DNA of 64,000 bases from an uncultured Candidatus Saccharibacteria bacterium (GTDB taxonomy: Bacteria; Patescibacteriota; Saccharimonadia; Saccharimonadales; Saccharimonadaceae). A model generated the notes under the pieces. That model saw only the letters and a program-made list of their open reading frames with translations. It had not been told where the DNA came from and did no database searches. This document shows, piece after piece, positions 2 to 56,171 of this stretch (the stretch's first letter is position 1; each line of letters starts with the position of its first letter). The DNA lies in assembly GCA_946414345.1 (NCBI GenBank), contig CAMKOB010000002.1:6540-70539 (forward strand). The letters run 5' to 3'. The position numbers and the translations under genes were made by a program.

Positions 2-571
2 GAGGAAATATGTGACGACGGTGAAGACGTGGCGATTTGTGTGTTATATGAGGTTGGTGTACAGTTTGGTACACCGATTGAAGGTGCTCGGGGCATTGGT
101 GTTAAATTGGTGTCGATGACGGATGAGCTTCAAGCCTTGGATGCAAATTTGCTTGCAATACTGGACTTGACCGTATTTGACGAAAACAATGAAGTTATTC
201 CAGTTTCCGACAATAATATTGACGCATTCTTTGGCATTCGTAAGAAGGAACTCGGCGATTTAGCAGATGCAGAAGAGCTATATTTCCAGCTTGTTTATAT
301 TAAAGACGGTGTAATTGTCGAGCGTTATGATGTCTCTGATATTGAAGATGATGGTTGGGGCTGGATGTTTGACGTTTCTGGGCTGTCACACTTCTCAAAT
401 TATGGTATCTTGGTTTCGACTACACCAATTGCTCCGAATACAGGTGGGTATACCAATACTGAGGCTGGAAGCTACAGAGATAATACTGCTTTGATTATTA
501 CTGTAACGGTAATGACTGTGTTTTTGACAATTTATAATTCGGTGGCTTACTTAAGAAGAAACAAGAAGTAG
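2..571 (+). CDS. C-terminal part of a secreted, probably cell-wall-anchored protein (5' end lies outside the window) ending in a sortase-type sorting signal
   Basis: Frame 2 is open from nt 2, with no stop before the GTG at 29 used by the ORF track. The C-terminus is APNTG (431-445), a 14-aa spacer, the hydrophobic helix ALIITVTVMTVFLTIY, then an RRNKK tail. This is the tripartite layout of LPXTG-type sorting signals. Confidence 0.6.
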   Translation, partial: EEICDDGEDVAICVLYEVGVQFGTPIEGARGIGVKLVSMTDELQALDANLLAILDLTVFDENNEVIPVSDNNIDAFFGIRKKELGDLADAEELYFQLVYIKDGVIVERYDVSDIEDDGWGWMFDVSGLSHFSNYGILVSTTPIAPNTGGYTNTEAGSYRDNTALIITVTVMTVFLTIYNSVAYLRRNKK

Positions 572-3608: not shown

Positions 3609-3638
3609 TTGACGTTGTTTTTTTGAGTGTGCTATAAT
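3609..3638 (+). promoter_or_regulatory. Sigma-70-type promoter of FISUMP paralogue A
   Basis: TTGACG, an 18-nt spacer, then TGCTATAAT (extended -10). Confidence 0.6.
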
Positions 3639-3683
3639 ATAACCATAAAGTTTATAAACACAAACACAAAAAGGTAAAGACAT

Positions 3684-5498
3684 ATGTCATCAAAACTTCT
3701 TATTAACGTAAATGACGCTAGTCCATCTGTAGTGCCAGACACTAGTGCACCAGATACTGGTATGTTTAGTGCCTCCCATGCAGATGGAGTGCACTTTAAT
3801 ACTAGTATGATTTTGCCAATTATTGGTATCGCTGTTTTAATAATTGCTATTATCGCAGGAACGATTGTAGCGGCTTCTCGTCGCAGAAAAGTAAATCGTT
3901 TTACTACGCATACTAATAAACACTTAGTGGCTAAACTAACTACATTATCCGTAGTAGTACTACTTGGTGCGCTGGCTGTAATGAATCTAGACAAACTTTC
4001 TAATCTAGCTAGTGCAGTACTTCTGGTAGATGATTTAAAAAACAATGATGACAATAGTCTTACTATTACGGCTAGTGATATCAAGATTGATGTAGATTTA
4101 AATGACAAAGCAGTCTTTGCTGCTGGCGAAAGTGTAGTTACTGTAGATTCTGCTACTGAGGCTGGATACACATTAATGGCTTATGTAGATAGTACTGCTA
4201 CAGACCTAAAGAATGAAACTAATAAATCGTCTACTAGTACTATTACTATGCTAAACACTACAGACTTCAAGAACCCAACAGCTTTAACTAATAATACATG
4301 GGGTATTGCCACTACTAAACCAACGGACCAAACATCGGAAGTCTTTACTGGCCTTCCTACTACACTAGACACTGCTATGACATTAAAGATTACAGACGAA
4401 GCTACAACTGCTAATGATAAATCTACCTTCTACTATGGCACTTATATTACTCCAGACCTAGATTATGGTACTTATTCTGGTACTACCATTACTTATATTG
4501 CCATAGCCAATGTAACCGAACTGTGCAATCCAAATGCTACTACCATTGACGATGCGGTATGTATGCAAGATTTTGCTGGACCTAATCGTAACCAGATAGT
4601 TGATTCTATGACACCAGAAACCCAATATACACTCATAGACAAACGTGATGAGAAAAGCTATACGATTGCGAAACTTCGAATCAACTTAGGGAGTGTAATG
4701 AGAGGTTCTCATGACGATTATGCTGTTTGGATGACTCAAAACCTAGATCTCGACCTCGATTCTAATACTACATACACCAACGAGGACACAGATTTAGGTT
4801 TCAACTTGCGTACGGGTGAATATGAAACCGCTTCTTGGGCTCCGAGCCGTTCTACTTATACTAGCACAAATACTTTCAAGCATGATTGGTGTATTGGTGG
4901 TGAATGGGTTTCTAATGATTCAGAAATGCAAGGTACACACTGTTCTAATTTTGTACTAGAATCTTATGATCCGGGTGATTATTATTGGAATGGTGTTGTT
5001 CGTAGTGGCGACTTTTCTGCCAATGGTATTCCGCAGCATCATTTAGGTAATTATTACAACTGGAATGCTGCTGTAGCAATGAATGATACTTCTAATGTTT
5101 CTCATTCTGTTGAGCTGGGGCAATCTATTTGTCCCACTGGTTGGACTCTTCCTACAGGCGTTTACTCCTTCTTTCGTTTGTGGTATTCTTATGATTTGGA
5201 TGAATATTCTTATAGCCCAAGAGATCTGGATGCTGCTGGCGAGCTTAATACTGCTCTTTGGCTTGAGCCACTTTATTTCAATATGAGTGGTTTTTTCGAT
5301 GGCGAATTGAGCCATATTTCGTTTGGAGGATTTTTATGGAATTCATTGTCTTCAATTAAAGGAGAAGCTTCTAGCGCTGGTTTCCAGGAATGGAATGCTG
5401 TGTCTGCCCCAAATGGTAGAGCTTACCGTGGTCTCGGTGTTTCTGTCCGTTGTGTCGTCCGCTCAGGAGAGATGTTTAGCTTAGTGCCATTGGGTTAG
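3684..5498 (+). CDS. Surface protein, paralogue A: N-terminal sorting-signal-like module, shared beta-rich module, FISUMP (Fibrobacter succinogenes major paralogous, TIGR02145-like) C-terminal domain
   Basis: In-frame TAA at 3675-3677 fixes the ATG at 3684. C-terminal signature VWMTQNLDLDL...HLGNYYNWNAAVAMN...SICPTGWTLPT...GVSVRCV. The N-terminus is PDTG, a TM helix, RRRK, then a second TM helix. Confidence 0.8.
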   Translation: MSSKLLINVNDASPSVVPDTSAPDTGMFSASHADGVHFNTSMILPIIGIAVLIIAIIAGTIVAASRRRKVNRFTTHTNKHLVAKLTTLSVVVLLGALAVMNLDKLSNLASAVLLVDDLKNNDDNSLTITASDIKIDVDLNDKAVFAAGESVVTVDSATEAGYTLMAYVDSTATDLKNETNKSSTSTITMLNTTDFKNPTALTNNTWGIATTKPTDQTSEVFTGLPTTLDTAMTLKITDEATTANDKSTFYYGTYITPDLDYGTYSGTTITYIAIANVTELCNPNATTIDDAVCMQDFAGPNRNQIVDSMTPETQYTLIDKRDEKSYTIAKLRINLGSVMRGSHDDYAVWMTQNLDLDLDSNTTYTNEDTDLGFNLRTGEYETASWAPSRSTYTSTNTFKHDWCIGGEWVSNDSEMQGTHCSNFVLESYDPGDYYWNGVVRSGDFSANGIPQHHLGNYYNWNAAVAMNDTSNVSHSVELGQSICPTGWTLPTGVYSFFRLWYSYDLDEYSYSPRDLDAAGELNTALWLEPLYFNMSGFFDGELSHISFGGFLWNSLSSIKGEASSAGFQEWNAVSAPNGRAYRGLGVSVRCVVRSGEMFSLVPLG

Positions 5499-7885: not shown

Positions 7886-8725
7886 ATGGAGCCAACAAAT
7901 ACAACAACACCATCAGCAACACCTAATGCGCCGTCTGATTTGCCTTTGCCGCCAGAACTACCTACTCTACCATCGGACCCTCCTGCTTTAAACCCGATTT
8001 CTCCGATGGAACCAGAAGCGCCTGTTGCCCCAGAGGCTCCTGTTGCCCCAGAGGCTCCTGTTGCCCCAGAAGCTCCTGTTGCTCCAGAGGCTCCTGTTGC
8101 CCCGGAGGCGCCTGTTGTTGAACCGGTGGCTCCAGTGGTTCCCGAGGTTCCAGCCGCTGAGCCAGCTGCTCCAGAAGCTCCTGCTGTTGAGCCAACTACT
8201 CCTGAGTCGCCAGCTGCGGCGGCTACAGCTCCAGATTTGTCTGACGTGGTGCCAGAAGCTTCCGCTGTTTTAGAAACACTTCAGACTTCAACTCTTGAGC
8301 AAGCTGTCAGTCCTGATGCACCGGCCGCTTCAATTGAATCGCCCGTTGCGGCTACGCCTGCAGATTCTGGTGCCAATACGTCTTTTGGCGCGATGGACCC
8401 GATTACGATGCCAACTCCGGCTAAAGCTCCAAATCCTGAAGAGGAAGAACTCAAGTCGCCTTTAAAGGCGGCAGAGCCAGTGCCTGGTTCAATTGGTAGT
8501 GCGATTTCGGTTCCATCTGAGACTGGTGCCATTGGTGCGGCTCAGGGTTTACAGACGTCAAGTATGGCCTATAATGATCCCAAGACTCAACAAAATAAAG
8601 CAGACGGTAAGTCGGCAAAAAAGAAAATGAGCAAGAGCACTTTGATACTTTTGGGTGTGCTTGGCGTTGTTGTAATTGTAGTTTTGGTAGTAGTATTAAT
8701 TCAAATGTTGGGTTCGGGCAAATAG
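7886..8725 (+). CDS. Pro/Ala/Glu-rich repeat protein with a single C-terminal TM helix (tail-anchored)
   Basis: AAGGAAG Shine-Dalgarno. Six PEAPVA repeats. C-terminus KKKMSKSTLILLGVLGVVVIVVLVVVLIQML. Confidence 0.7.
   Translation: MEPTNTTTPSATPNAPSDLPLPPELPTLPSDPPALNPISPMEPEAPVAPEAPVAPEAPVAPEAPVAPEAPVAPEAPVVEPVAPVVPEVPAAEPAAPEAPAVEPTTPESPAAAATAPDLSDVVPEASAVLETLQTSTLEQAVSPDAPAASIESPVAATPADSGANTSFGAMDPITMPTPAKAPNPEEEELKSPLKAAEPVPGSIGSAISVPSETGAIGAAQGLQTSSMAYNDPKTQQNKADGKSAKKKMSKSTLILLGVLGVVVIVVLVVVLIQMLGSGK
8012..8119 (+). repeat. Six in-frame tandem copies of an 18-bp unit (CCAGAGGCTCCTGTTGCC-like) encoding PEAPVA
   Basis: Units at 8012, 8030, 8048, 8066, 8084 and 8102, differing by a few synonymous or near-synonymous changes. 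Confidence 0.9.
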
Positions 8726-37719: not shown

Positions 37720-37749
37720 AAAAAACAACCACATATGTGGTTGTTTTTT
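37720..37749 (+). terminator. Rho-independent terminator after rpoC
   Basis: Perfect palindrome ACAACCACAT/ATGTGGTTGT flanked by an A-run and TTTTTT. Confidence 0.75.
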
Positions 37750-37795
37750 GTTAGGATGTGTGATATATTTGTATGTAGACAGATTGAGAGGTTTT

Positions 37796-39223
37796 ATGCA
37801 TTTTACGACGATTTTCAAATCCCTAAAAAATAAAGATATGCTAAAAAGAGTGCTAATTATTTTTGGTATTTTGGTTGCTTATAGACTGTTGGCACAGATT
37901 CCGGTTCCAATGGGTGATGCTGCGACTTTTAAGGAAGCAGTTTCTAATTTGATGCAGAAGTCCGACTTTTCAAATTTTTTGAATCTAATTTCTGGTGGTG
38001 GCCTGGCGTCATTTAGCATTATCCTGGTTGGTCTTTCGCCATATATTACCGGTTCAATTGTAATTCAGCTACTTACAAAGGCAATACCTCGTTTAGAAGA
38101 ATTATCTAACGATGGTGAGACTGGTCGTCGTAAGATTAACCAGTGGACGAGAATGCTCACTGTGCCTCTTGCGATCGTTCAATCGATTGCTTATATTTTC
38201 ATACTTTATCAAACAACAATTTCGGCAAATCTTTCGGCGGATTTCGTGCCGACAACTGGCGACTGGATTCTATCAGTTGTAGCGATGACTGCAGGTTCGG
38301 TGATTTTGATGTGGATGGGTGAACTTATCACTGAACAGGGTATTGGTAACGGTATTTCAATGATTATCTTTGCTTCTATCATTTCACAAATGCCAACGAC
38401 GTTTGCATCGCTTGGTTCTATGCTTGCTGACACCGAGACTTATGGCAAATTGAATTTGTTCGGTACGGAATTTCCAGTTAATGGTGTAGCTTTTTGGATT
38501 GTGTTAGGATTCATTATTGCATTGATTGTGGTGATTTATATATTGGTAAAGCTAAATGAAGCGCAGAGAATTATAACGATTAATTATGCGAAGCGTGTAC
38601 ACGGTAATTCGTCTTATGGTGGGATTCGTTCTATTCTACCAATTAAGCTTATCGCAGCTGGTGTAATTCCTGTAATTTTTGCGACCGCCTTTCTGTCGTT
38701 GCCAGCCCTGGTTGGTCAGGTAATTACATCGATTGATTCTGACAATGAAATTGGTGCAAAGCTCGTTTCGATCTTTTCGGCGCCAAGTGCTTCGAATTTT
38801 TCCACTCAGTATCCTGATGGATTAACGGCACAGTGGTTTATTTACCCTGCTGTGTATTTTGTGTTAGTATTTGCGTTTACTTATTTCTATACTTCTATAA
38901 TATTTAATACTAAAGAAATTGCAGATAATTTGCAGAAACAAGGTGCGTTTATTGAAGGTGTTCGTCCTGGCATTAAGACGGCGGAATACTTGGGTAAAGT
39001 CGTAAATCGCCTTGATCTATTTGGTGCTTTGGCTCTTGGTCTAATTGCTATGCTTCCTTTCGTAACGGATTTTGTGTTCATAATGGCGATTGGTTATCCG
39101 GTGGGGCTTTCAATCTCTGGTACTGGACTTCTTATCGTAGTGACGGTGGCGTTGGAGAATCTAAGGTCGGTGGATTCTAGAGCTCTAATGATAACTTACG
39201 ATGATTTCAAAAATGAGTCTTAA
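37796..39223 (+). CDS. secY: Preprotein translocase subunit SecY
   Basis: ~10 TM helices with GISMIIFASI and typical N-terminal LKRVLIIFGILVAYRLLAQIPVP. ATG 37796 follows a GAGAGG Shine-Dalgarno. Confidence 0.95.
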   Translation: MHFTTIFKSLKNKDMLKRVLIIFGILVAYRLLAQIPVPMGDAATFKEAVSNLMQKSDFSNFLNLISGGGLASFSIILVGLSPYITGSIVIQLLTKAIPRLEELSNDGETGRRKINQWTRMLTVPLAIVQSIAYIFILYQTTISANLSADFVPTTGDWILSVVAMTAGSVILMWMGELITEQGIGNGISMIIFASIISQMPTTFASLGSMLADTETYGKLNLFGTEFPVNGVAFWIVLGFIIALIVVIYILVKLNEAQRIITINYAKRVHGNSSYGGIRSILPIKLIAAGVIPVIFATAFLSLPALVGQVITSIDSDNEIGAKLVSIFSAPSASNFSTQYPDGLTAQWFIYPAVYFVLVFAFTYFYTSIIFNTKEIADNLQKQGAFIEGVRPGIKTAEYLGKVVNRLDLFGALALGLIAMLPFVTDFVFIMAIGYPVGLSISGTGLLIVVTVALENLRSVDSRALMITYDDFKNES

Positions 39224-39911
39224 ATTGGGTGTGAGCTGGAAAAGAGTAATTCAATGGGTGGCAATAACCGCTGTAGTGGTGTTTGTCGGTGCTTGTTTTA
39301 TTAGATTAATGGTTTGGGAAGATAATTATTATCGCGAAATGGAGGGGAGTGAGCGAGACGTTATTGCAAAAGAGGCGGTAGTTGAAAAAGAAATAGAACC
39401 TTTGATTGAGGAAGAGCCTACTGAACAAGAAATCTATGAATATTGGGTGGCTCCAGATAGGCCTAGGTATCTTTCAATTGCAAAGTTAAACATTTATAAC
39501 AGACGCATTATTCCCGTAGGAATTAATCCTACTGGTGAGTTGGCTACGCCTAATAATATATTTGATGTTGGCTGGTATGAATCTTCTGGAAAACCAGGAG
39601 CTGGTGGGACAATGTTGATTGACGGGCATAATGGTGGTCCGAATGTTTATGGAGTATTTAAATTTTTGCCTGATCTTCAAATTGGCGATTTTATTACTAT
39701 AGAACGCGGAGATGGTTTGCTGTTTCAGTATAAAATTGTTGAAAATAAGGCAGTACTATTAGATGAGGCTGACAAATATATGGCTACAGCTTTACGCTCT
39801 CCGGAACCTGGTCGCGAATCTTTGACATTGATTACTTGTACTGGCGAGTGGTCGGATCTTAGATACACATATTTATCTAGGCAATTTACTAGAGCAGTAC
39901 TTGTTGAATAA
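39201..39911 (+). CDS. Sortase-family transpeptidase (class F-like by motif pattern)
   Basis: N-terminal TM anchor. Catalytic His in TMLIDGHNGG, Cys in LTLITCTGEW, and a downstream Arg (SRQFTRAVLVE). If ATG 39201 is used, the ORF overlaps the last 23 nt of secY (alternative start ATG 39213). Confidence 0.85.
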   Translation: MISKMSLKLGVSWKRVIQWVAITAVVVFVGACFIRLMVWEDNYYREMEGSERDVIAKEAVVEKEIEPLIEEEPTEQEIYEYWVAPDRPRYLSIAKLNIYNRRIIPVGINPTGELATPNNIFDVGWYESSGKPGAGGTMLIDGHNGGPNVYGVFKFLPDLQIGDFITIERGDGLLFQYKIVENKAVLLDEADKYMATALRSPEPGRESLTLITCTGEWSDLRYTYLSRQFTRAVLVE

Positions 39912-44984: not shown

Positions 44985-46814
44985 ATGTCATCTAAATTAT
45001 TAGTTAATGTAAATGATGCCACTCCTAGTGTAGTGCCAGATACTGACGTGCCGGGCGCTACAACGCCAGATACTGGTATGTTTAGTGTCTCTCATGTAGA
45101 TGGAGTGAGCTTTAATACTAGTATGATTTTACCAATTATTGGTATCGCTGTTTTAATAATTGCTATTATTGCAGGAACGGTTGTAGTAATATCTCGTCGC
45201 AGAAAAGTAAATCGTTTTACTACACATACTAATAAGCATTTAGTGGCTAAACTTACTACATTATCCGTAGTAGTACTACTAGGTGCACTTGGAGTAATGA
45301 ATGCAGATAAACTAACTAGCATGGTTAACGCAACAGCTGATGATTCGGAAGACAGCCTTACTATTACGGCTAGTGACATTAAGATTGATGTAGATTTAAA
45401 TGATACCGCAGTATTTGCCACTGGAGAGAGTGTTGTTGCAGTTAATTCTGCTACTCCTTATGGCTATACACTAATGGCTTATGTAGATAGCGCAACTACG
45501 GATCTTATTAATGAAACAAACACATCATCTACTAGCACTATTGATATGCTAGATTCGCTAGAGCCTACAGTACTTGCCGATAATACTTGGGGCTTTGCTA
45601 CTACTAGGCCAACAGACCAAACCTCAGCGGTATTTACTGGTATTCCCAACACATTAAAGGAAGCTACCACTCTAAAATATACAGAAGAGCCTACAACTGC
45701 CAATGATGAGTCTACTTTCTATTATGGTACTTACGTCACGCCAGACTTAGACTACGGTACTTATTCTGGTGTTACGATTACTTATGTTGCAATAGCCAAT
45801 ATTTGTAATCCGCTAGCTACTAATATAGGTGAAGCTGTTTGTTTGCAAGACTTTGCTGGACCGAATCGTGACCGAATAGTTGATTCTATGACACCAGAAC
45901 GACAATATACGCTCATAGACAAACGAGATAAGAAGCCTTATACGCTTGCAAAGTATCCTGCTCTTGGTCACGCACGGAGCCAGACGCCTGTTTTTCAAGT
46001 ATGGATGACTCAGAACCTAGATTTAGACCTAGATTCTAATATTACATATACCAACAAGGATACGGATCTTGGTTACAATGCACAAACCAAACAATATGAA
46101 ACTGCATCTTGGATCCCAAGTACTTCTACTTATATTACAAATGATAAAACTTGGAGAGGTTCTTATACTACACCAGAGTCATATGATATAGGAAACAAAT
46201 ACTGGAATGGTAGAATTGATGAGGGTAATGGTGGATATGGTGCGATTTGGGGTGATTACTTTCAGACCTGTAGTTGGGAATCTGAATACAGACCATTTAA
46301 TTGCGATGAATCTCTTAACCCAACTTCATACTTTGTTTCGTCTAATGGTATTCCGCAATATCATCTAGGTAATTACTACAACTGGACTGCGGCTGTGGCT
46401 ATGAATGATAGCTCTAGCTATAATGACGGCCAGTTGATAGAACAGTCTATTTGTCCAACTGGTTGGACTTTGCCGCGGGTGGGATCTGGCGAAGATACAT
46501 TTAATACGCTATGGATGTATTATGGACTTGTGGGTGGATGGAATTCTTATAATGAGGATTATAGTTTATGGATGGAACCGCTTTACTTTGTTGCTAGTGG
46601 CGGATGGTATGGTTATTTGGGTTATGTTGGGACTGGTGGAGATTATTGGTCGTCAGCAACAGATGATAATCAATATGCCGGCGTTGGGATTTTTAATACG
46701 CGTGTTTATACTCCATCGTTTAGCGGAGGTGGTAATCGTGATACTGGCATTTCGATTCGTTGTATGGCTCGTCCGGTTTCCTCTTCTTTGTCGAGTATCG
46801 ACGCTAACGCTTAA
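44985..46814 (+). CDS. Surface protein, paralogue B: N-terminal sorting-signal-like module, shared beta-rich module, FISUMP C-terminal domain
   Basis: The N-terminal ~310 aa are close to paralogue A. C-terminal VWMTQNLDLDL...HLGNYYNWTAAVAMN...SICPTGWTLPR...GISIRCMAR. Confidence 0.8.
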   Translation: MSSKLLVNVNDATPSVVPDTDVPGATTPDTGMFSVSHVDGVSFNTSMILPIIGIAVLIIAIIAGTVVVISRRRKVNRFTTHTNKHLVAKLTTLSVVVLLGALGVMNADKLTSMVNATADDSEDSLTITASDIKIDVDLNDTAVFATGESVVAVNSATPYGYTLMAYVDSATTDLINETNTSSTSTIDMLDSLEPTVLADNTWGFATTRPTDQTSAVFTGIPNTLKEATTLKYTEEPTTANDESTFYYGTYVTPDLDYGTYSGVTITYVAIANICNPLATNIGEAVCLQDFAGPNRDRIVDSMTPERQYTLIDKRDKKPYTLAKYPALGHARSQTPVFQVWMTQNLDLDLDSNITYTNKDTDLGYNAQTKQYETASWIPSTSTYITNDKTWRGSYTTPESYDIGNKYWNGRIDEGNGGYGAIWGDYFQTCSWESEYRPFNCDESLNPTSYFVSSNGIPQYHLGNYYNWTAAVAMNDSSSYNDGQLIEQSICPTGWTLPRVGSGEDTFNTLWMYYGLVGGWNSYNEDYSLWMEPLYFVASGGWYGYLGYVGTGGDYWSSATDDNQYAGVGIFNTRVYTPSFSGGGNRDTGISIRCMARPVSSSLSSIDANA

Positions 46815-50847: not shown

Positions 50848-50907
50848 AAAAGTATTGCAAACGTGAAAATGTTTGTGTTATAATTGAAATAAGCATTGGG
50901 AGTTATT

Positions 50908-51603
50908 ATGCGAAAAAGTAGAGTTTTATTGGCGATATTTGCCGCTAGTTTTATCGGCATAATGTCGAATCCAGAGATGTTGACAGCATCTGATTCTGTT
51001 GCTGTGCTTGGTTTAAGCAATGATAACATCGTTGAAACTGTCGTAAAGGCTGAGCCTGTGGTGGCTGATGTTGGTGAAGAAATTGATGAGCCGACTGAGC
51101 CTGTTGAAGCGATTGTTCAAGAGGTAGTCTACTCTGAACCAGTTTATGAGGAACCTGTTTATGTTGAGCCGGCCCACGAAGAGCCAGTCTATCAACTTCC
51201 ATCTAGCTATATTCAAATTAATGGTCTCACTATCCCTCTTGAATATACTGACACAACAGCGGAAAATGCTGGAAATGCGCAATTAGCATGGTATTATAAA
51301 ACCGGTAAGCATATTTATGGTCACAATCTTGATTATGTGTTTGGTTCTTTGGACTGGGCGCACGATGGTGGCTATTTGGATGGTATGCCTTTTACGGTAG
51401 TGATGGACGGTGTAGCAAGTTATTATACTGTTGCTACGCATCGTGTGTATGATCGTTTAGATGCATATACACTAGGTTATAATGGTGATACGCTCAGTAT
51501 GTATCCGATTGTGAATGCTAAACTTGATGGCACTTATTATCGTATGACAATTATGACCTGTTATAATGGTAGTTCGCAACGTCTGGTGCTTTATGCTAAC
51601 TAA
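50908..51603 (+). CDS. Second sortase-like protein: signal peptide or anchor, acidic EPVY-repeat linker, sortase-type core
   Basis: GGGAG Shine-Dalgarno before ATG 50908. His in KHIYGHNLDYVFGSL, Cys in YRMTIMTCYNG, and Arg 7 residues later (SSQRLVLYAN), which is the H...TLxTC...R order of sortases. Confidence 0.6.
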   Translation: MRKSRVLLAIFAASFIGIMSNPEMLTASDSVAVLGLSNDNIVETVVKAEPVVADVGEEIDEPTEPVEAIVQEVVYSEPVYEEPVYVEPAHEEPVYQLPSSYIQINGLTIPLEYTDTTAENAGNAQLAWYYKTGKHIYGHNLDYVFGSLDWAHDGGYLDGMPFTVVMDGVASYYTVATHRVYDRLDAYTLGYNGDTLSMYPIVNAKLDGTYYRMTIMTCYNGSSQRLVLYAN

Positions 51604-53378: not shown

Positions 53379-56171
53379 TTAAGTGCGTACGCAACGTATA
53401 TATAAGCCATAGCTTCTGTCGTAATCCCCTTTATTTGTGATAAGTGCATTGCCGTTATAATATAGTCCATAGCGATTTACTTCTCCATTTGCAGCAGCCG
53501 ACCACCATCTCCCAAAGTTCGTGCCATAATTTGCTCCATCCCTATAACTTCCACCCGTAATTGGTGAAAATAGATTTTTAGAGGTCTCTGTTGTGGAGGA
53601 TAGACTATTTACCAAACCAGCTTGATAGTACGTATTGTATCCTGGTAGATGCCAGCCTGCCGGACAGATGTCTTCCGTTGCTGTCCCATTATTCGAACTT
53701 CCAACAATCGTTTTTGCTGTGGTTGCAACGTAATTGTACCAGACTCCTGTTGTGGCACTACTTGAATCTTGACACATCGGTAGTTCGTAACTGTTCCCGG
53801 AACTCAAACTTCCTTCGCATACATTAACGCTTTCGTAAGTACTGAAATTAGAATCCTGCGAGTTCACTTCACCAGTAATACGTAGATTTTGTGTCATCCA
53901 ACAAGCCCCGTGTATGTATCTTACTTTGTAATCATTTCCGTCGCGTTTATCATATACTTTAAAATCTGTTTCTGTGGCTGCAATTTGACATGCATTTTTT
54001 GTGAGATCTTGTATATATATTGGCTGTTCTGTTGTGTCTTTTTTCAATTTACATCGAATATTATACCCATTGCGTCGGCCAGTATTGTCTCCTGTGGCAA
54101 TGCTGCTTCTGTTAATACCAAGAAAGTATACTGATGGATTTCCTAGAGTTGTCGATGACCACCAACCACCATATTGTCCTTGATTTGAAATGGGCCCATA
54201 ATAGGTTTTATTGCCGGAAAGTGGTAAGCGTAAGGCAGTTCTATATTTTGTTACACCATTATAGGCATTAAATAAAACTTTGTATTCTGCATCTGAACTT
54301 GATCCACCTGTTGGGATTTCCCAGCCTGACGGGCATATATCTTCGCTGATTTGATTTATGTCTGGTGTTCCAGCATCTGTGCCATTTCCGTAGCAATACG
54401 AGCCCGCGCTGGCTGCACAATAATTATAATATGCTCCATATTTCCAATTTGAAGCTTCCGCTAAAGGATCATCGGAAGTAACACTATTTATTGACGAAAT
54501 ATTTACCATTGGTGCTGAGTATGAATATGTCTCTTGGTCTGACCAATTTGAAAGTGTTAAACCGGATGTGGCATAGTTACCGCTTGGGTCAGTTTCTGGA
54601 TCACGTATACTGGTTCCTTTAAGATAATTTAATGTAACTGTGGTGGCATTTGTATTACTGGCCGATAGAGTGCCTACGATTGTACTGTCTGTAAGGTCGA
54701 GCGCTAGATTGTCTGCTAACCAAATATTGCCATCTTTTAGTTTTGTTACGGTATATATTGTTCCATCACGATTGTCTGTTAGTGTCGTGGTTGATCCATT
54801 ACAAACTGAATTTAGAGTTATTTGGTCGATTGAATACGTCTGCATTATGCTGGTTCCGGATGGAAGTGGTATACACTCAAATTTACTTTCGAGCACTAGT
54901 GCGCCATCTCCTTGTCCTATTGTGTAATAAGCATTTATACTTGACGTAGAACTTAGGGACGAGTTGGTGTTGTTATCATTTTTAAACCAGCTGTCGAAGC
55001 TATAACTTGTGTCGAATACTGGATATAAATAATAATTATCCAAATATGTAAGTTCGCTGCAAGTAAATATATCATTATTATTTGTGCATGGGATAGATGC
55101 GTCGCTCCCCTCTTTTTTAACTGATAGGTTTGTTACATTGCTATCTGCATTTATTATCAAATTATAACGGTTTTTTGTCCAGGTTGCATATAATATAATA
55201 TTTGCATTATTGGTTGTTTTATCGATCCCAAAATTTGTATTGCTTGCATATTCTGTACCCGTGCAGGTTAATCCGTTGTTTGATACTGTACCGAGGCACC
55301 ATTTATTGAACGTATAACCAGCTCTTGTGGGTGCCAAATTTGGTATTGTTATGTTTGCTTGTGTCGTATTTCCATTTATGCTATCGGGTAGATTCTCCAC
55401 TGTGTTGTCACCTGTATTATCATTGAAAGTAATGTTGTATGTGATTGGGTTTGCGACATATTCTAGTATGAAAGTGTCATTGGTATAAGTTCCGGCTGAC
55501 TTGGTATAGTTCACTCTAACCCCTAGACCAATAGTGTAGTCATCTGCATTGCTAATACCATCGGCACTATTTGCTGCGACAGTACTATTAATAATGACGG
55601 CATGGTTATCGGCTGGTGAAGGATAGTAGTTGGTGGTATTTGAAATTGAATTATAATAGCTCGGAATATATCCCCATCTATTGTTTAGCGTTTGCCCAGT
55701 TACTTCTGGCGATGAGAATAACTCGTACGTAGTTGAGGATGGGAGTGTATTGATAGAGCCTTCGTGATTATTTGTCAGATTTGTGTTGTTACTGTTTGAT
55801 TTTAATGTGAGCGTATAACCACTATAATTATTTGTACTAATACTAAATTGGGCTTTTTCGCTTTCGTTGCTAGTCGCAAAAGTTCCGTTTTTTGAGCTGA
55901 CGGCTAAGTATACAGATGCCGTTGGTTTTACGATATTGAATGTTATTGTTGGTTCTGTTGCCGTGCCTACTATGGCTTCGACATTTCTTGAACTTACGCA
56001 TATAGGATTAATTGTTGCAAGGAGTAATAAGGTTAGTGTTACAAGGGAAGCTATGCAGATTTTTCGTGTTTTATGCGTATTTGTAATTAGTTTGCAAAAT
56101 GAACTGTCTGATTTCTCGACTTTTCTATAACCATTCTCAACAAAATATTTATTTCTATTAAACACTTCCAT
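53379..56171 (-). CDS. 930-aa surface protein: signal/anchor, shared beta-rich module, InlB-B-type (Flg_new-like) repeat(s), two tandem FISUMP domains
   Basis: FISUMP 1 ~aa 441-708 (IWLADNLALDL...YYNYCAASAG...CPSGWEIPT...YNIRCKL). FISUMP 2 ~aa 719-930 (CWMTQNLRITG...WYNYVATTAK...CPAGWHLPG...LYIRCVRT). The repeat runs AGYTFNKWC...ILYATW. Confidence 0.8.
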   Translation of the reverse strand: MEVFNRNKYFVENGYRKVEKSDSSFCKLITNTHKTRKICIASLVTLTLLLLATINPICVSSRNVEAIVGTATEPTITFNIVKPTASVYLAVSSKNGTFATSNESEKAQFSISTNNYSGYTLTLKSNSNNTNLTNNHEGSINTLPSSTTYELFSSPEVTGQTLNNRWGYIPSYYNSISNTTNYYPSPADNHAVIINSTVAANSADGISNADDYTIGLGVRVNYTKSAGTYTNDTFILEYVANPITYNITFNDNTGDNTVENLPDSINGNTTQANITIPNLAPTRAGYTFNKWCLGTVSNNGLTCTGTEYASNTNFGIDKTTNNANIILYATWTKNRYNLIINADSNVTNLSVKKEGSDASIPCTNNNDIFTCSELTYLDNYYLYPVFDTSYSFDSWFKNDNNTNSSLSSTSSINAYYTIGQGDGALVLESKFECIPLPSGTSIMQTYSIDQITLNSVCNGSTTTLTDNRDGTIYTVTKLKDGNIWLADNLALDLTDSTIVGTLSASNTNATTVTLNYLKGTSIRDPETDPSGNYATSGLTLSNWSDQETYSYSAPMVNISSINSVTSDDPLAEASNWKYGAYYNYCAASAGSYCYGNGTDAGTPDINQISEDICPSGWEIPTGGSSSDAEYKVLFNAYNGVTKYRTALRLPLSGNKTYYGPISNQGQYGGWWSSTTLGNPSVYFLGINRSSIATGDNTGRRNGYNIRCKLKKDTTEQPIYIQDLTKNACQIAATETDFKVYDKRDGNDYKVRYIHGACWMTQNLRITGEVNSQDSNFSTYESVNVCEGSLSSGNSYELPMCQDSSSATTGVWYNYVATTAKTIVGSSNNGTATEDICPAGWHLPGYNTYYQAGLVNSLSSTTETSKNLFSPITGGSYRDGANYGTNFGRWWSAAANGEVNRYGLYYNGNALITNKGDYDRSYGLYIRCVRT

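Follow-up and report, generated by a model that had tools for sequence, protein, structure and literature searches.

The closest described counterparts of the element reported here are found in streptococci. In the Zmp proteases, an LPXTG motif, two transmembrane (TM) segments and a second signal peptidase site are laid out at the N-terminus (PMC3518915), the IgA1 protease and ZmpB need sortase A to be retained at the surface and are depleted in the proteome of a sortase A (srtA) knockout (PMC13604702), and SSU0879 of S. suis has been described likewise, with an atypical amino-terminal LPXTG (PMC2705793). Here we studied a 64,000-nucleotide stretch of a Candidatus Saccharibacteria contig (hereafter the window; GC content 41.5%), whose closest homologues share that name. 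In this window, gene A and its paralogue B encode proteins that begin with a segment of comparable layout, which had been noticed in gene A from the DNA sequence (the original prediction). Sequence comparison supports the view that this N-terminal segment is a sortase-type tripartite signal, namely the lineage's own sorting signal. The original prediction knew of no described N-terminal sortase signal. The three streptococcal reports correct this point: an N-terminal sortase signal is already established for the Zmps, and what is new here is the lack of a leading signal peptide and a cargo of one strand plus a linker.

Like the streptococcal M26 Zmps (IgA1 protease/ZmpA, ZmpB, ZmpC and ZmpD), for which we rely on published descriptions, A and B combine a motif with two hydrophobic segments and a second signal peptidase site. 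However, the Zmps start with a signal peptide, often of the YSIRK type, and tens of residues of cargo, whereas A and B start without signal peptide and carry a strand of ~10 aa and a linker. The motif differs as well, being LPXTG in the Zmps and [VAT]P[DN]TG in the Saccharibacteria module, and so do phylum and body: the Zmps belong to the Bacillota and have an M26 protease, whereas A and B belong to the Saccharibacteria and have a beta-sandwich and a FISUMP-like domain. A family search of A and B gave no match to Peptidase_M26. A signal peptide ahead of the motif, which is a Zmp feature, was found only in the rare variants P0160, P0199 and P0048. The parts of the Zmp literature that we consulted describe no strand-complementation role for the N-terminal fragment, whereas such a role is proposed here for A and B. 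Among the papers in the library searched, none pairs sortase with the phrase 'N-terminal sorting signal'.

The candidate sorting signal and its conservation

Proteins A and B are built in the same order: an amphipathic strand of 10 residues comes after Met, and an acidic linker leads from it to PDTG; a spacer, TM1, RRRK, TM2, AxA, a beta-sandwich and a FISUMP-like C-terminal domain then follow. In the translation of gene A, the leader M1-A22 is followed by the motif P23-G26, a spacer of 15 residues and the hydrophobic stretch M42-A64, and then by S65-RRRKVNR72 and a second hydrophobic stretch, L85-M100. All elements listed for this N-terminus in the original prediction were found again at the same positions, in the translation and as AlphaFold2 helices. 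At the DNA level, CCAGATACTGG (PDTG) matches the window at 3750-3760 in gene A and at 45066-45076 in gene B, which makes two matches where 0.25 are expected by chance. As in canonical C-terminal sorting signals, motif, spacer, hydrophobic helix and basic tail follow one another, and the tripartite signal of gene A is complete (motif, TM1 at 42-64, RRRK). In contrast to those signals, it lies at the N-terminus (aa 23-72 of 604, with ~530 residues after it), and a second signal peptide and ~500 residues follow.

The C-terminal signals at related loci read VPDTGVF, AVPNTGVG and LVPDTGAF, and the one in the window reads IAPNTGGY. These belong to the same motif class and likewise have a long spacer, a TM segment and a basic tail. 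A hidden Markov model (HMM) built only from N-terminal PxTG-TM1-basic segments gave full-length matches to C-terminal signals among 1013 open reading frames (ORFs), with E = 3.2e-7, 1.2e-6 and 4.2e-4. The C-terminal signal of another surface protein in the window, at 431-568, was matched at E = 1.2e-6, which bears out the likeness to this signal that had been claimed for gene A.

The original prediction had allowed for the module being absent from orthologues and had suggested a search of related genomes for N-terminal PxTG-TM-RRRK modules. The N-terminus of gene A recurs in ~45 of its 120 highest-ranking full-length homologues, down to 30-37% identity, and the others have ordinary signal peptides. 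P23, T25 and G26 were the sole invariant columns in an alignment of 18 divergent modules. An exhaustive HMM search with the N-terminal module (1.84 billion representatives; threshold E <= 1e-3) returned 110 cluster representatives; in almost every one, the match covers residues 1 to ~118 of a protein of 500-1600 aa. A second subfamily (MSNITLNIVEPG...VPNTGLFTHGIGGPEATII) contributes ~100 further clusters, most of which have the module at the extreme N-terminus; its named members are all Saccharibacteria or Saccharimonadaceae. Among the module-bearing clusters, which number well over 100, all that have an organism name are Candidatus Saccharibacteria. In addition, 34 related loci were found among the GTDB species representatives, all of them in Saccharibacteria or Nanosyncoccus metagenome-assembled genomes (MAGs), mostly from ruminant gut. 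Judged from these comparisons, the module is conserved and not a chance pattern, and the statistical and evolutionary evidence for its presence is strong.

Leader, motif, spacer and loop were characterised in a census of 146 sequences. The leader has a median length of 25 aa (range 15-89) and a mean net charge of -3.25, which is negative in 134/146 sequences. The motif is [VAT]P[DN]TG, with V, T or A at residue -1 and D (83) or N (47) at residue x, and it is separated from TM1 by 5-19 aa. The loop between TM1 and TM2 has a mean charge of +6.4. Under the positive-inside rule, the acidic leader and the basic loop fit a hairpin with the N-tail outside, the loop inside and the body outside, which agrees with the topology first suggested for gene A. 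At the other end of the protein, the C-termini of 12 module-bearing proteins were read, and 11/12 end in a FISUMP-like domain without C-terminal anchor; the exception is P0191, with an extra C-terminal TM helix.

The module family has expanded strongly, which is what one would expect of variable surface adhesins. The window's contig carries at least three paralogues (A, B and P0015), and protein P0001, from a 74-kb Saccharibacteria contig, is 100% identical to gene A. The MAG of Candidatus Saccharibacteria bacterium RGIG7166, from water buffalo, has at least 15 loci of the family, spread over several contigs (L004-L016, L021 and L023).

The leader is also read as protein. In their first 20 codons, A and B differ by ~9 synonymous and 2 non-synonymous changes, from which we conclude that selection acts on the leader and that it is translated. 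Upstream of gene A lies an in-frame TAA (3675-3677), as the original prediction had noted, and gene B has an in-frame stop six codons before its start. Between the TATAAT box and the ribosome-binding site, the upstream alignment shows a 16-nt block, ATAAAGTTTATAAACA, that is conserved in the 5' untranslated regions (UTRs) of A and B. This block may be a common regulatory element.

The second hydrophobic segment and the leader strand

When full-length sequences are aligned, TM2 and AxA of the module-bearing proteins fall column for column on the classical signal peptides of homologues without the module. TM2 is therefore, by sequence, an ordinary signal peptide with a predicted signal peptidase I (SPase I) site, and the second helix of gene A holds up as the signal-peptide h-region it had been taken for. 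Ala111 is conserved in at least 90% of module-bearing and module-less homologues. Within the module-bearing proteins, position -3 is V, A, T or S in 91/109, and position -1 is Ala in 62/91 aligned sequences. The predicted SPase I sites are ASA111/V112 in A and VNA116/T117 in B. Residues 1-22 of gene A have no hydrophobic core and hence form no signal peptide before the motif. Judged from its sequence, the basic loop at aa 65-84 has two roles: it closes the sorting signal as its charged tail and opens the second signal peptide as its n-region.

The rare variants bear on how the N-tail might be exported. P0160 and P0199 have a classical signal peptide and an extra domain (~90-110 aa) before the strand or the PxTG-TM-basic-TM2 unit, and P0048 has a lipoprotein signal peptide before this unit; the latter lies on a 2-kb contig and could be chimeric. 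All three look like two secreted proteins fused via a sorting signal and a signal peptide. Since they have a signal peptide of their own, a long N-terminal cargo brings its export signal along, while the short acidic leaders do not. This pattern of cargo length fits translocation of the N-tail driven by TM1.

Leaders begin with Met and 2-3 residues, followed by the pattern h-x-h-(N)-h, and the equivalents of L5, I7 and V9 are I, L, V, F or M in 89/89 distinct leaders. In the AlphaFold2 model of gene A, residues 1-10 have a pLDDT of 96 and residues 2-11 are assigned as strand; in that of P0082 (34% identity to gene A), the leader has a pLDDT of 95 and the strand covers residues 2-10. By comparison, the 10 residues of the linker block in gene A have a mean pLDDT of 72, and motif and spacer are below 50. 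The helices at 43-67 and 79-105 are of intermediate pLDDT, and the sandwich at 126-276 is above 90. G161, W206, Y264 and G266 are invariant in this sandwich in the full-length alignment. DSSP calls a strand only when it is hydrogen-bonded to a partner strand. As the only sheets of the model lie in the body, we infer that the leader strand docks onto the body sandwich.

Foldseek comparisons with the PDB gave no match at E <= 0.001 for the models of gene A and P0082. Most of the top 20 matches of P0082 were donor-strand-complemented chaperone-usher pilins (CS20, FimF, FimG, the pilin domain of PapG, CfaE and CsuE), with E values between 7e-3 and 7.5e-2 and a probability of up to 0.96 (0.93-0.96 for CS20, FimF, FimG and PapG). 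The gene A model matched the same pilins, lower in the list and with lower scores. The modelled sandwich thus weakly resembles chaperone-usher pilins.

A and B share with the chaperone-usher pilins (Fim, Pap, CFA/I and Csu) an N-terminal extension with alternating hydrophobic residues; the structural similarity is below significance. In contrast to these pilins, the strand of A and B would become a separate, wall-linked peptide after processing, and would serve as a tether for the body instead of polymerising it. No chaperone or usher genes were noticed beside A or B, although no systematic search for them was made. Donor-strand-exchange pili (Pam pili) have been reported in Saccharibacteria, in a study that does not describe the module family (bioRxiv 10.64898/2026.03.03.709456), and strand complementation is therefore plausible in this phylum. 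A type IV pilin signal was rejected: the leader is acidic, 15 aa separate Gly26 from TM1, and there is no Glu5.

In the autoproteolysed SEA and GAIN domains of eukaryotic surface proteins, the chain is cut and the pieces are held together by a strand of one piece embedded in the sheet of the other. These domains cut themselves within a single domain, whereas two separate enzymes and the removal of a TM hairpin are proposed for A and B; there is no sequence or evolutionary relation between them. An isopeptide-forming strand was also considered for the leader and rejected, as Asn at position 8 is not universal.

The remainder of the body resembles FISUMP domains. TIGR02145 (FISUMP) scores 34.4 bits with A and 39.7 bits with B, against a cut-off of 41.65. 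Many relatives carry PF09603 (FISUMP-type), and the bodies of A and B match TIGR02145/PF09603 below the curated cut-offs. A protein of 930 aa is encoded on the minus strand of the window at 53379-56171. It has a classical signal peptide and a Listeria-Bacteroides repeat, and its C-terminal FISUMP domain scores above the Pfam cut-off. Its C-terminal part is related to A and B, and it is without the N-terminal module.

Proposed mechanism and alternative explanations

We propose that the first ~111 residues form a self-excising N-terminal wall-anchor module. Judged from charge and hydropathy, TM1 would be a reverse signal-anchor, by which the short acidic N-tail reaches the outside, and the body would be exported by TM2 in the manner of an ordinary Sec signal peptide; the basic loop would remain in the cytoplasm. 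The amphipathic leader strand (aa 2-11) would dock into an incomplete pilin-like sandwich of the body, as suggested by AlphaFold2. A housekeeping sortase would cut [VAT]P[DN]TG between T and G and transfer strand and linker to peptidoglycan, a step to which the identity with the C-terminal signals of the lineage points. The expected substrate peptide is VVPDTSAPDTGMFS (PDTG), with the product of 39201-39911 as candidate enzyme, and the wall product would be MSSKLLINVNDASPSVVPDTSAPDT joined to the stem peptide. SPase I would cut between A111 and V112 after AxA, in line with the alignment to classical signal peptides, and the TM hairpin G26-A111 would stay in the membrane as waste. The original prediction gave a signal peptidase cut after TM2 little weight and named a cut by signal peptidase alone only as an outcome that would speak against its reading; together with the sortase cut, the cut after TM2 would remove the hairpin wholly. 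In its mature form, the adhesin-like body would stay on the wall through non-covalent binding to the covalently fixed donor strand, with the FISUMP-like C-terminal domain pointing outward and its C-terminus free.

Taken as a whole, this mechanism, in which the strand is linked to the wall by sortase, the body is released by SPase I, the hairpin is lost and strand complementation keeps the body in place, has in our judgement an even chance of being correct. That an expanded Saccharibacteria family of adhesin-like proteins is held non-covalently on wall-fixed donor strands of ~10 residues, after excision of the hairpin by sortase and SPase I, is a more tentative proposal, to which we give somewhat less than an even chance.

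Several observations weigh against this mechanism. No sortase gene was found within 4 kb of the module genes in the 34 loci when both candidates of the window were used as tblastn queries. The docking of the leader onto the sandwich was deduced indirectly, from pLDDT and DSSP. When covariation between leader and body was analysed by mutual information/APC in 109 sequences (effective number ~80), the highest-scoring pairs were scattered and thus uninformative. The Foldseek matches to pilins are weak, with a best E of 7e-3 and TM-scores of 0.35-0.5 when normalised by the target. The AxA column is not universal, position -1 being Ala in ~68% of the aligned module-bearing sequences. Finally, PF00746 (Gram_pos_anchor) and TIGR01167 gave no match to the N-terminal module at E <= 1.

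The last two of these points lead to different alternatives. The incomplete AxA column would suit a wall-to-membrane staple or a plain hairpin anchor. Here SPase would leave the chain intact, whether or not sortase cuts; TM2 would keep the body in the membrane as a signal-anchor, and the fold would be completed by the N-strand, be it free or joined to the wall. Two confident TM helices joined by a strongly basic loop agree with this, and in the AlphaFold2 models the uncleaved chain already has the strand in its place. However, TM2 and AxA align with signal peptides that are cleavable in homologues, A111 shows at least 90% conservation, and a hairpin without sortase cleavage leaves the invariance of P, T and G and the identity with C-terminal signals unexplained. 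We therefore consider a hairpin anchor unlikely. The silence of the anchor models, together with the gene neighbourhoods without sortase linkage, could mean that PxTG is unrelated to sortase and either forms a turn in the structure or is cut by another protease, the module being an unusual long signal sequence. But PF00746 and TIGR01167 also miss the window's own C-terminal signal, from which we conclude that these models do not cover the Saccharibacteria lineage. Moreover, the tripartite architecture is complete and the HMM made from N-terminal signals retrieves true C-terminal ones, and a role independent of sortase appears very improbable to us.

Sortase might also act here as a ligase, with Gly26 as acceptor for other substrates, or with Thr25 joined in cis to the N-terminus made by SPase so that the hairpin is spliced out. 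Sortases accept N-terminal amine nucleophiles, as is established and has been assayed in vitro (PMC13604702), and both ends would lie outside and near each other. Yet the residues after AxA are not conserved (V, T, A, E or gaps), and there is thus no conserved nucleophile; G26 is followed by M, L, V or Y and then F, not by oligo-Gly. An acceptor role would also turn the leader into waste, although it is the best conserved part. We regard ligation as improbable. The original prediction had seen the purpose of the cut in exposing Gly26 as ligation acceptor on a membrane protein, for which nothing in our analysis speaks, and had treated as disposable a leader that is both the best conserved and the most confidently modelled part.

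It had further left room for a true start downstream of the first helix. If the start were M27, M42 or a GTG at V82, the upstream part would be an untranslated remnant of the 3' end of the neighbouring gene. P0024 is indeed called from M42, and frameshifted fragments such as P0195 exist. Against such an annotation artefact stand the excess of synonymous changes in the leader, a Met start whose position is conserved across >100 divergent clusters, the in-frame stop just upstream with the conserved 5' UTR, and the pLDDT of 96 for residues 1-10. A mis-called start codon is effectively excluded. A gene-fusion artefact was considered and rejected.

If the proposed excision and strand anchoring are true, a sortase substrate need not be a C-terminally tagged protein: a bare beta-strand would be the anchored cargo and the plug for a separately released protein. 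Anchoring to the wall would be N-terminal and would leave the C-terminal binding domain free, as a third route of wall display beside the C-terminal covalent anchor and the wall-binding domain. This could also account for the surface retention of the streptococcal IgA1 protease and Zmp proteins, and would be testable for the N-terminal LPXTG, long a puzzle, of the pneumococcal IgA1 protease and of the Zmp virulence factors. The family would then be a large and expanded group of surface proteins, with at least 17 matching loci in one ruminant MAG, through which episymbiotic Saccharibacteria may attach to their hosts. Current anchor HMMs and annotations miss these signals, and the proteins are labelled 'hypothetical' or 'InlB B-repeat-containing'.

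Sortase candidates, feature coordinates and further observations

Two sortases had been claimed for the window. The one at 39201-39911 on the plus strand stands, with matches to PF04203 and PDB 4d70. It is nearest to class F, scoring 69 bits against an NCBIfam cut-off of 166. Its gene lies directly downstream of rpoB and rpoC and overlaps the 3' end of secY (37748-39223) by 23 nt, and it therefore appears to be co-transcribed with this translocon gene, as far as the gene layout tells. The other, at 50896-51603, gave no family or PDB match: the ORF of 235 aa has an N-terminal signal-anchor and a GHN...MTIMTC...R spacing that recalls the sortase catalytic triad, but searches of Pfam, NCBIfam and the PDB were negative, and BLASTP detected no similarity to the sortase at 39201-39911. 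Either this ORF encodes a very divergent sortase-like protein or the likeness is coincidental. The coordinates of the features are collected in Table 1.

Table 1. Coordinates in the window of genes A and B, the parts of gene A, the reference sorting signal and the candidate sortase
Feature	Coordinates	Strand	Description	Basis
C-terminal sorting signal	431-568	+	Canonical: APNTGG, 17-aa spacer, TM, RRNKK, stop; in another surface protein	Reference for the lineage motif
Putative -10 box and 5'-UTR block	3633-3660	+	TATAAT 3633-3638; ATAAAGTTTATAAACA 3645-3660; promoter role putative	Read from sequence
Gene A	3684-5498	+	604 aa; N-terminal anchor module, beta-sandwich, FISUMP-like domain	ORF list
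Leader strand, aa 2-11	3687-3716	+	SSKLLINVND; proposed donor strand	AlphaFold2 strand; conserved hydrophobics
Acidic linker, aa 12-22	3717-3749	+	Contains a degenerate VPDTS copy; length varies among homologues	
PDTG motif, aa 23-26	3750-3761	+	Predicted cleavage T25/G26	Sequence comparison
Motif-TM1 spacer, aa 27-41	3762-3806	+		Translation
TM1, aa 42-64	3807-3875	+	Hydrophobic part of the candidate sorting signal	Hydropathy; AlphaFold2 helix 43-67
Basic loop, aa 65-84	3876-3935	+	SRRRKVNRFTTHTNKHLVAK; predicted cytoplasmic	Loop charge
TM2 h-region, aa 85-100, and c-region	3936-4016	+	c-region ends in ASA, aa 109-111	Alignment to classical signal peptides
Beta-sandwich, aa 126-276	4059-4511	+	Proposed strand acceptor	pLDDT >90; invariant residues
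FISUMP-like region, aa 277-604	4512-5495	+	Reaches the protein end	TIGR02145 below cut-off; PF09603 in relatives
Sortase	39201-39911	+	LTLITC motif; candidate processing enzyme	PF04203 E = 5e-15; PDB 4d70 sortase E = 1.5e-4
Paralogue B	44985-46814	+	609 aa; module aa 1-116 (44985-45332); PDTG 45066-45077	Translation; alignment to A

Stand-alone modules were also encountered. P0190 is an ORF of 75 aa that consists only of strand, linker, PDTG, TM segment and KRR tail, and the identical protein is present on 8 contigs. At locus L039 (898-1125), and also at L040 and L041, it shares 20 nt with the beginning of a complete, module-bearing gene of 1060 aa. Because it lies directly in front of this gene, P0190 is probably a recombination remnant. 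Naturally split genes were rejected as an explanation, P0195 being a frameshifted fragment and P0190 adjoining a complete module gene.

The module-bearing protein P0200 (1631 aa; locus L001, 1-9715) is encoded directly 3' of a type IV pilus cluster with PilM, PilB- and PilT-like ATPases, PilC and a prepilin peptidase. Elsewhere in the window, 7886-8725 encodes a Pro/Ala-rich protein of 279 aa. This protein has APEAPV in about six tandem copies and no sortase motif, and at its C-terminus a hydrophobic tail anchor follows KKKMSK. Ribosomal protein S5, encoded at 1546-2340, has 264 aa, with an N-terminal extension of ~60 aa and a long Lys/Ala-rich C-terminal tail.

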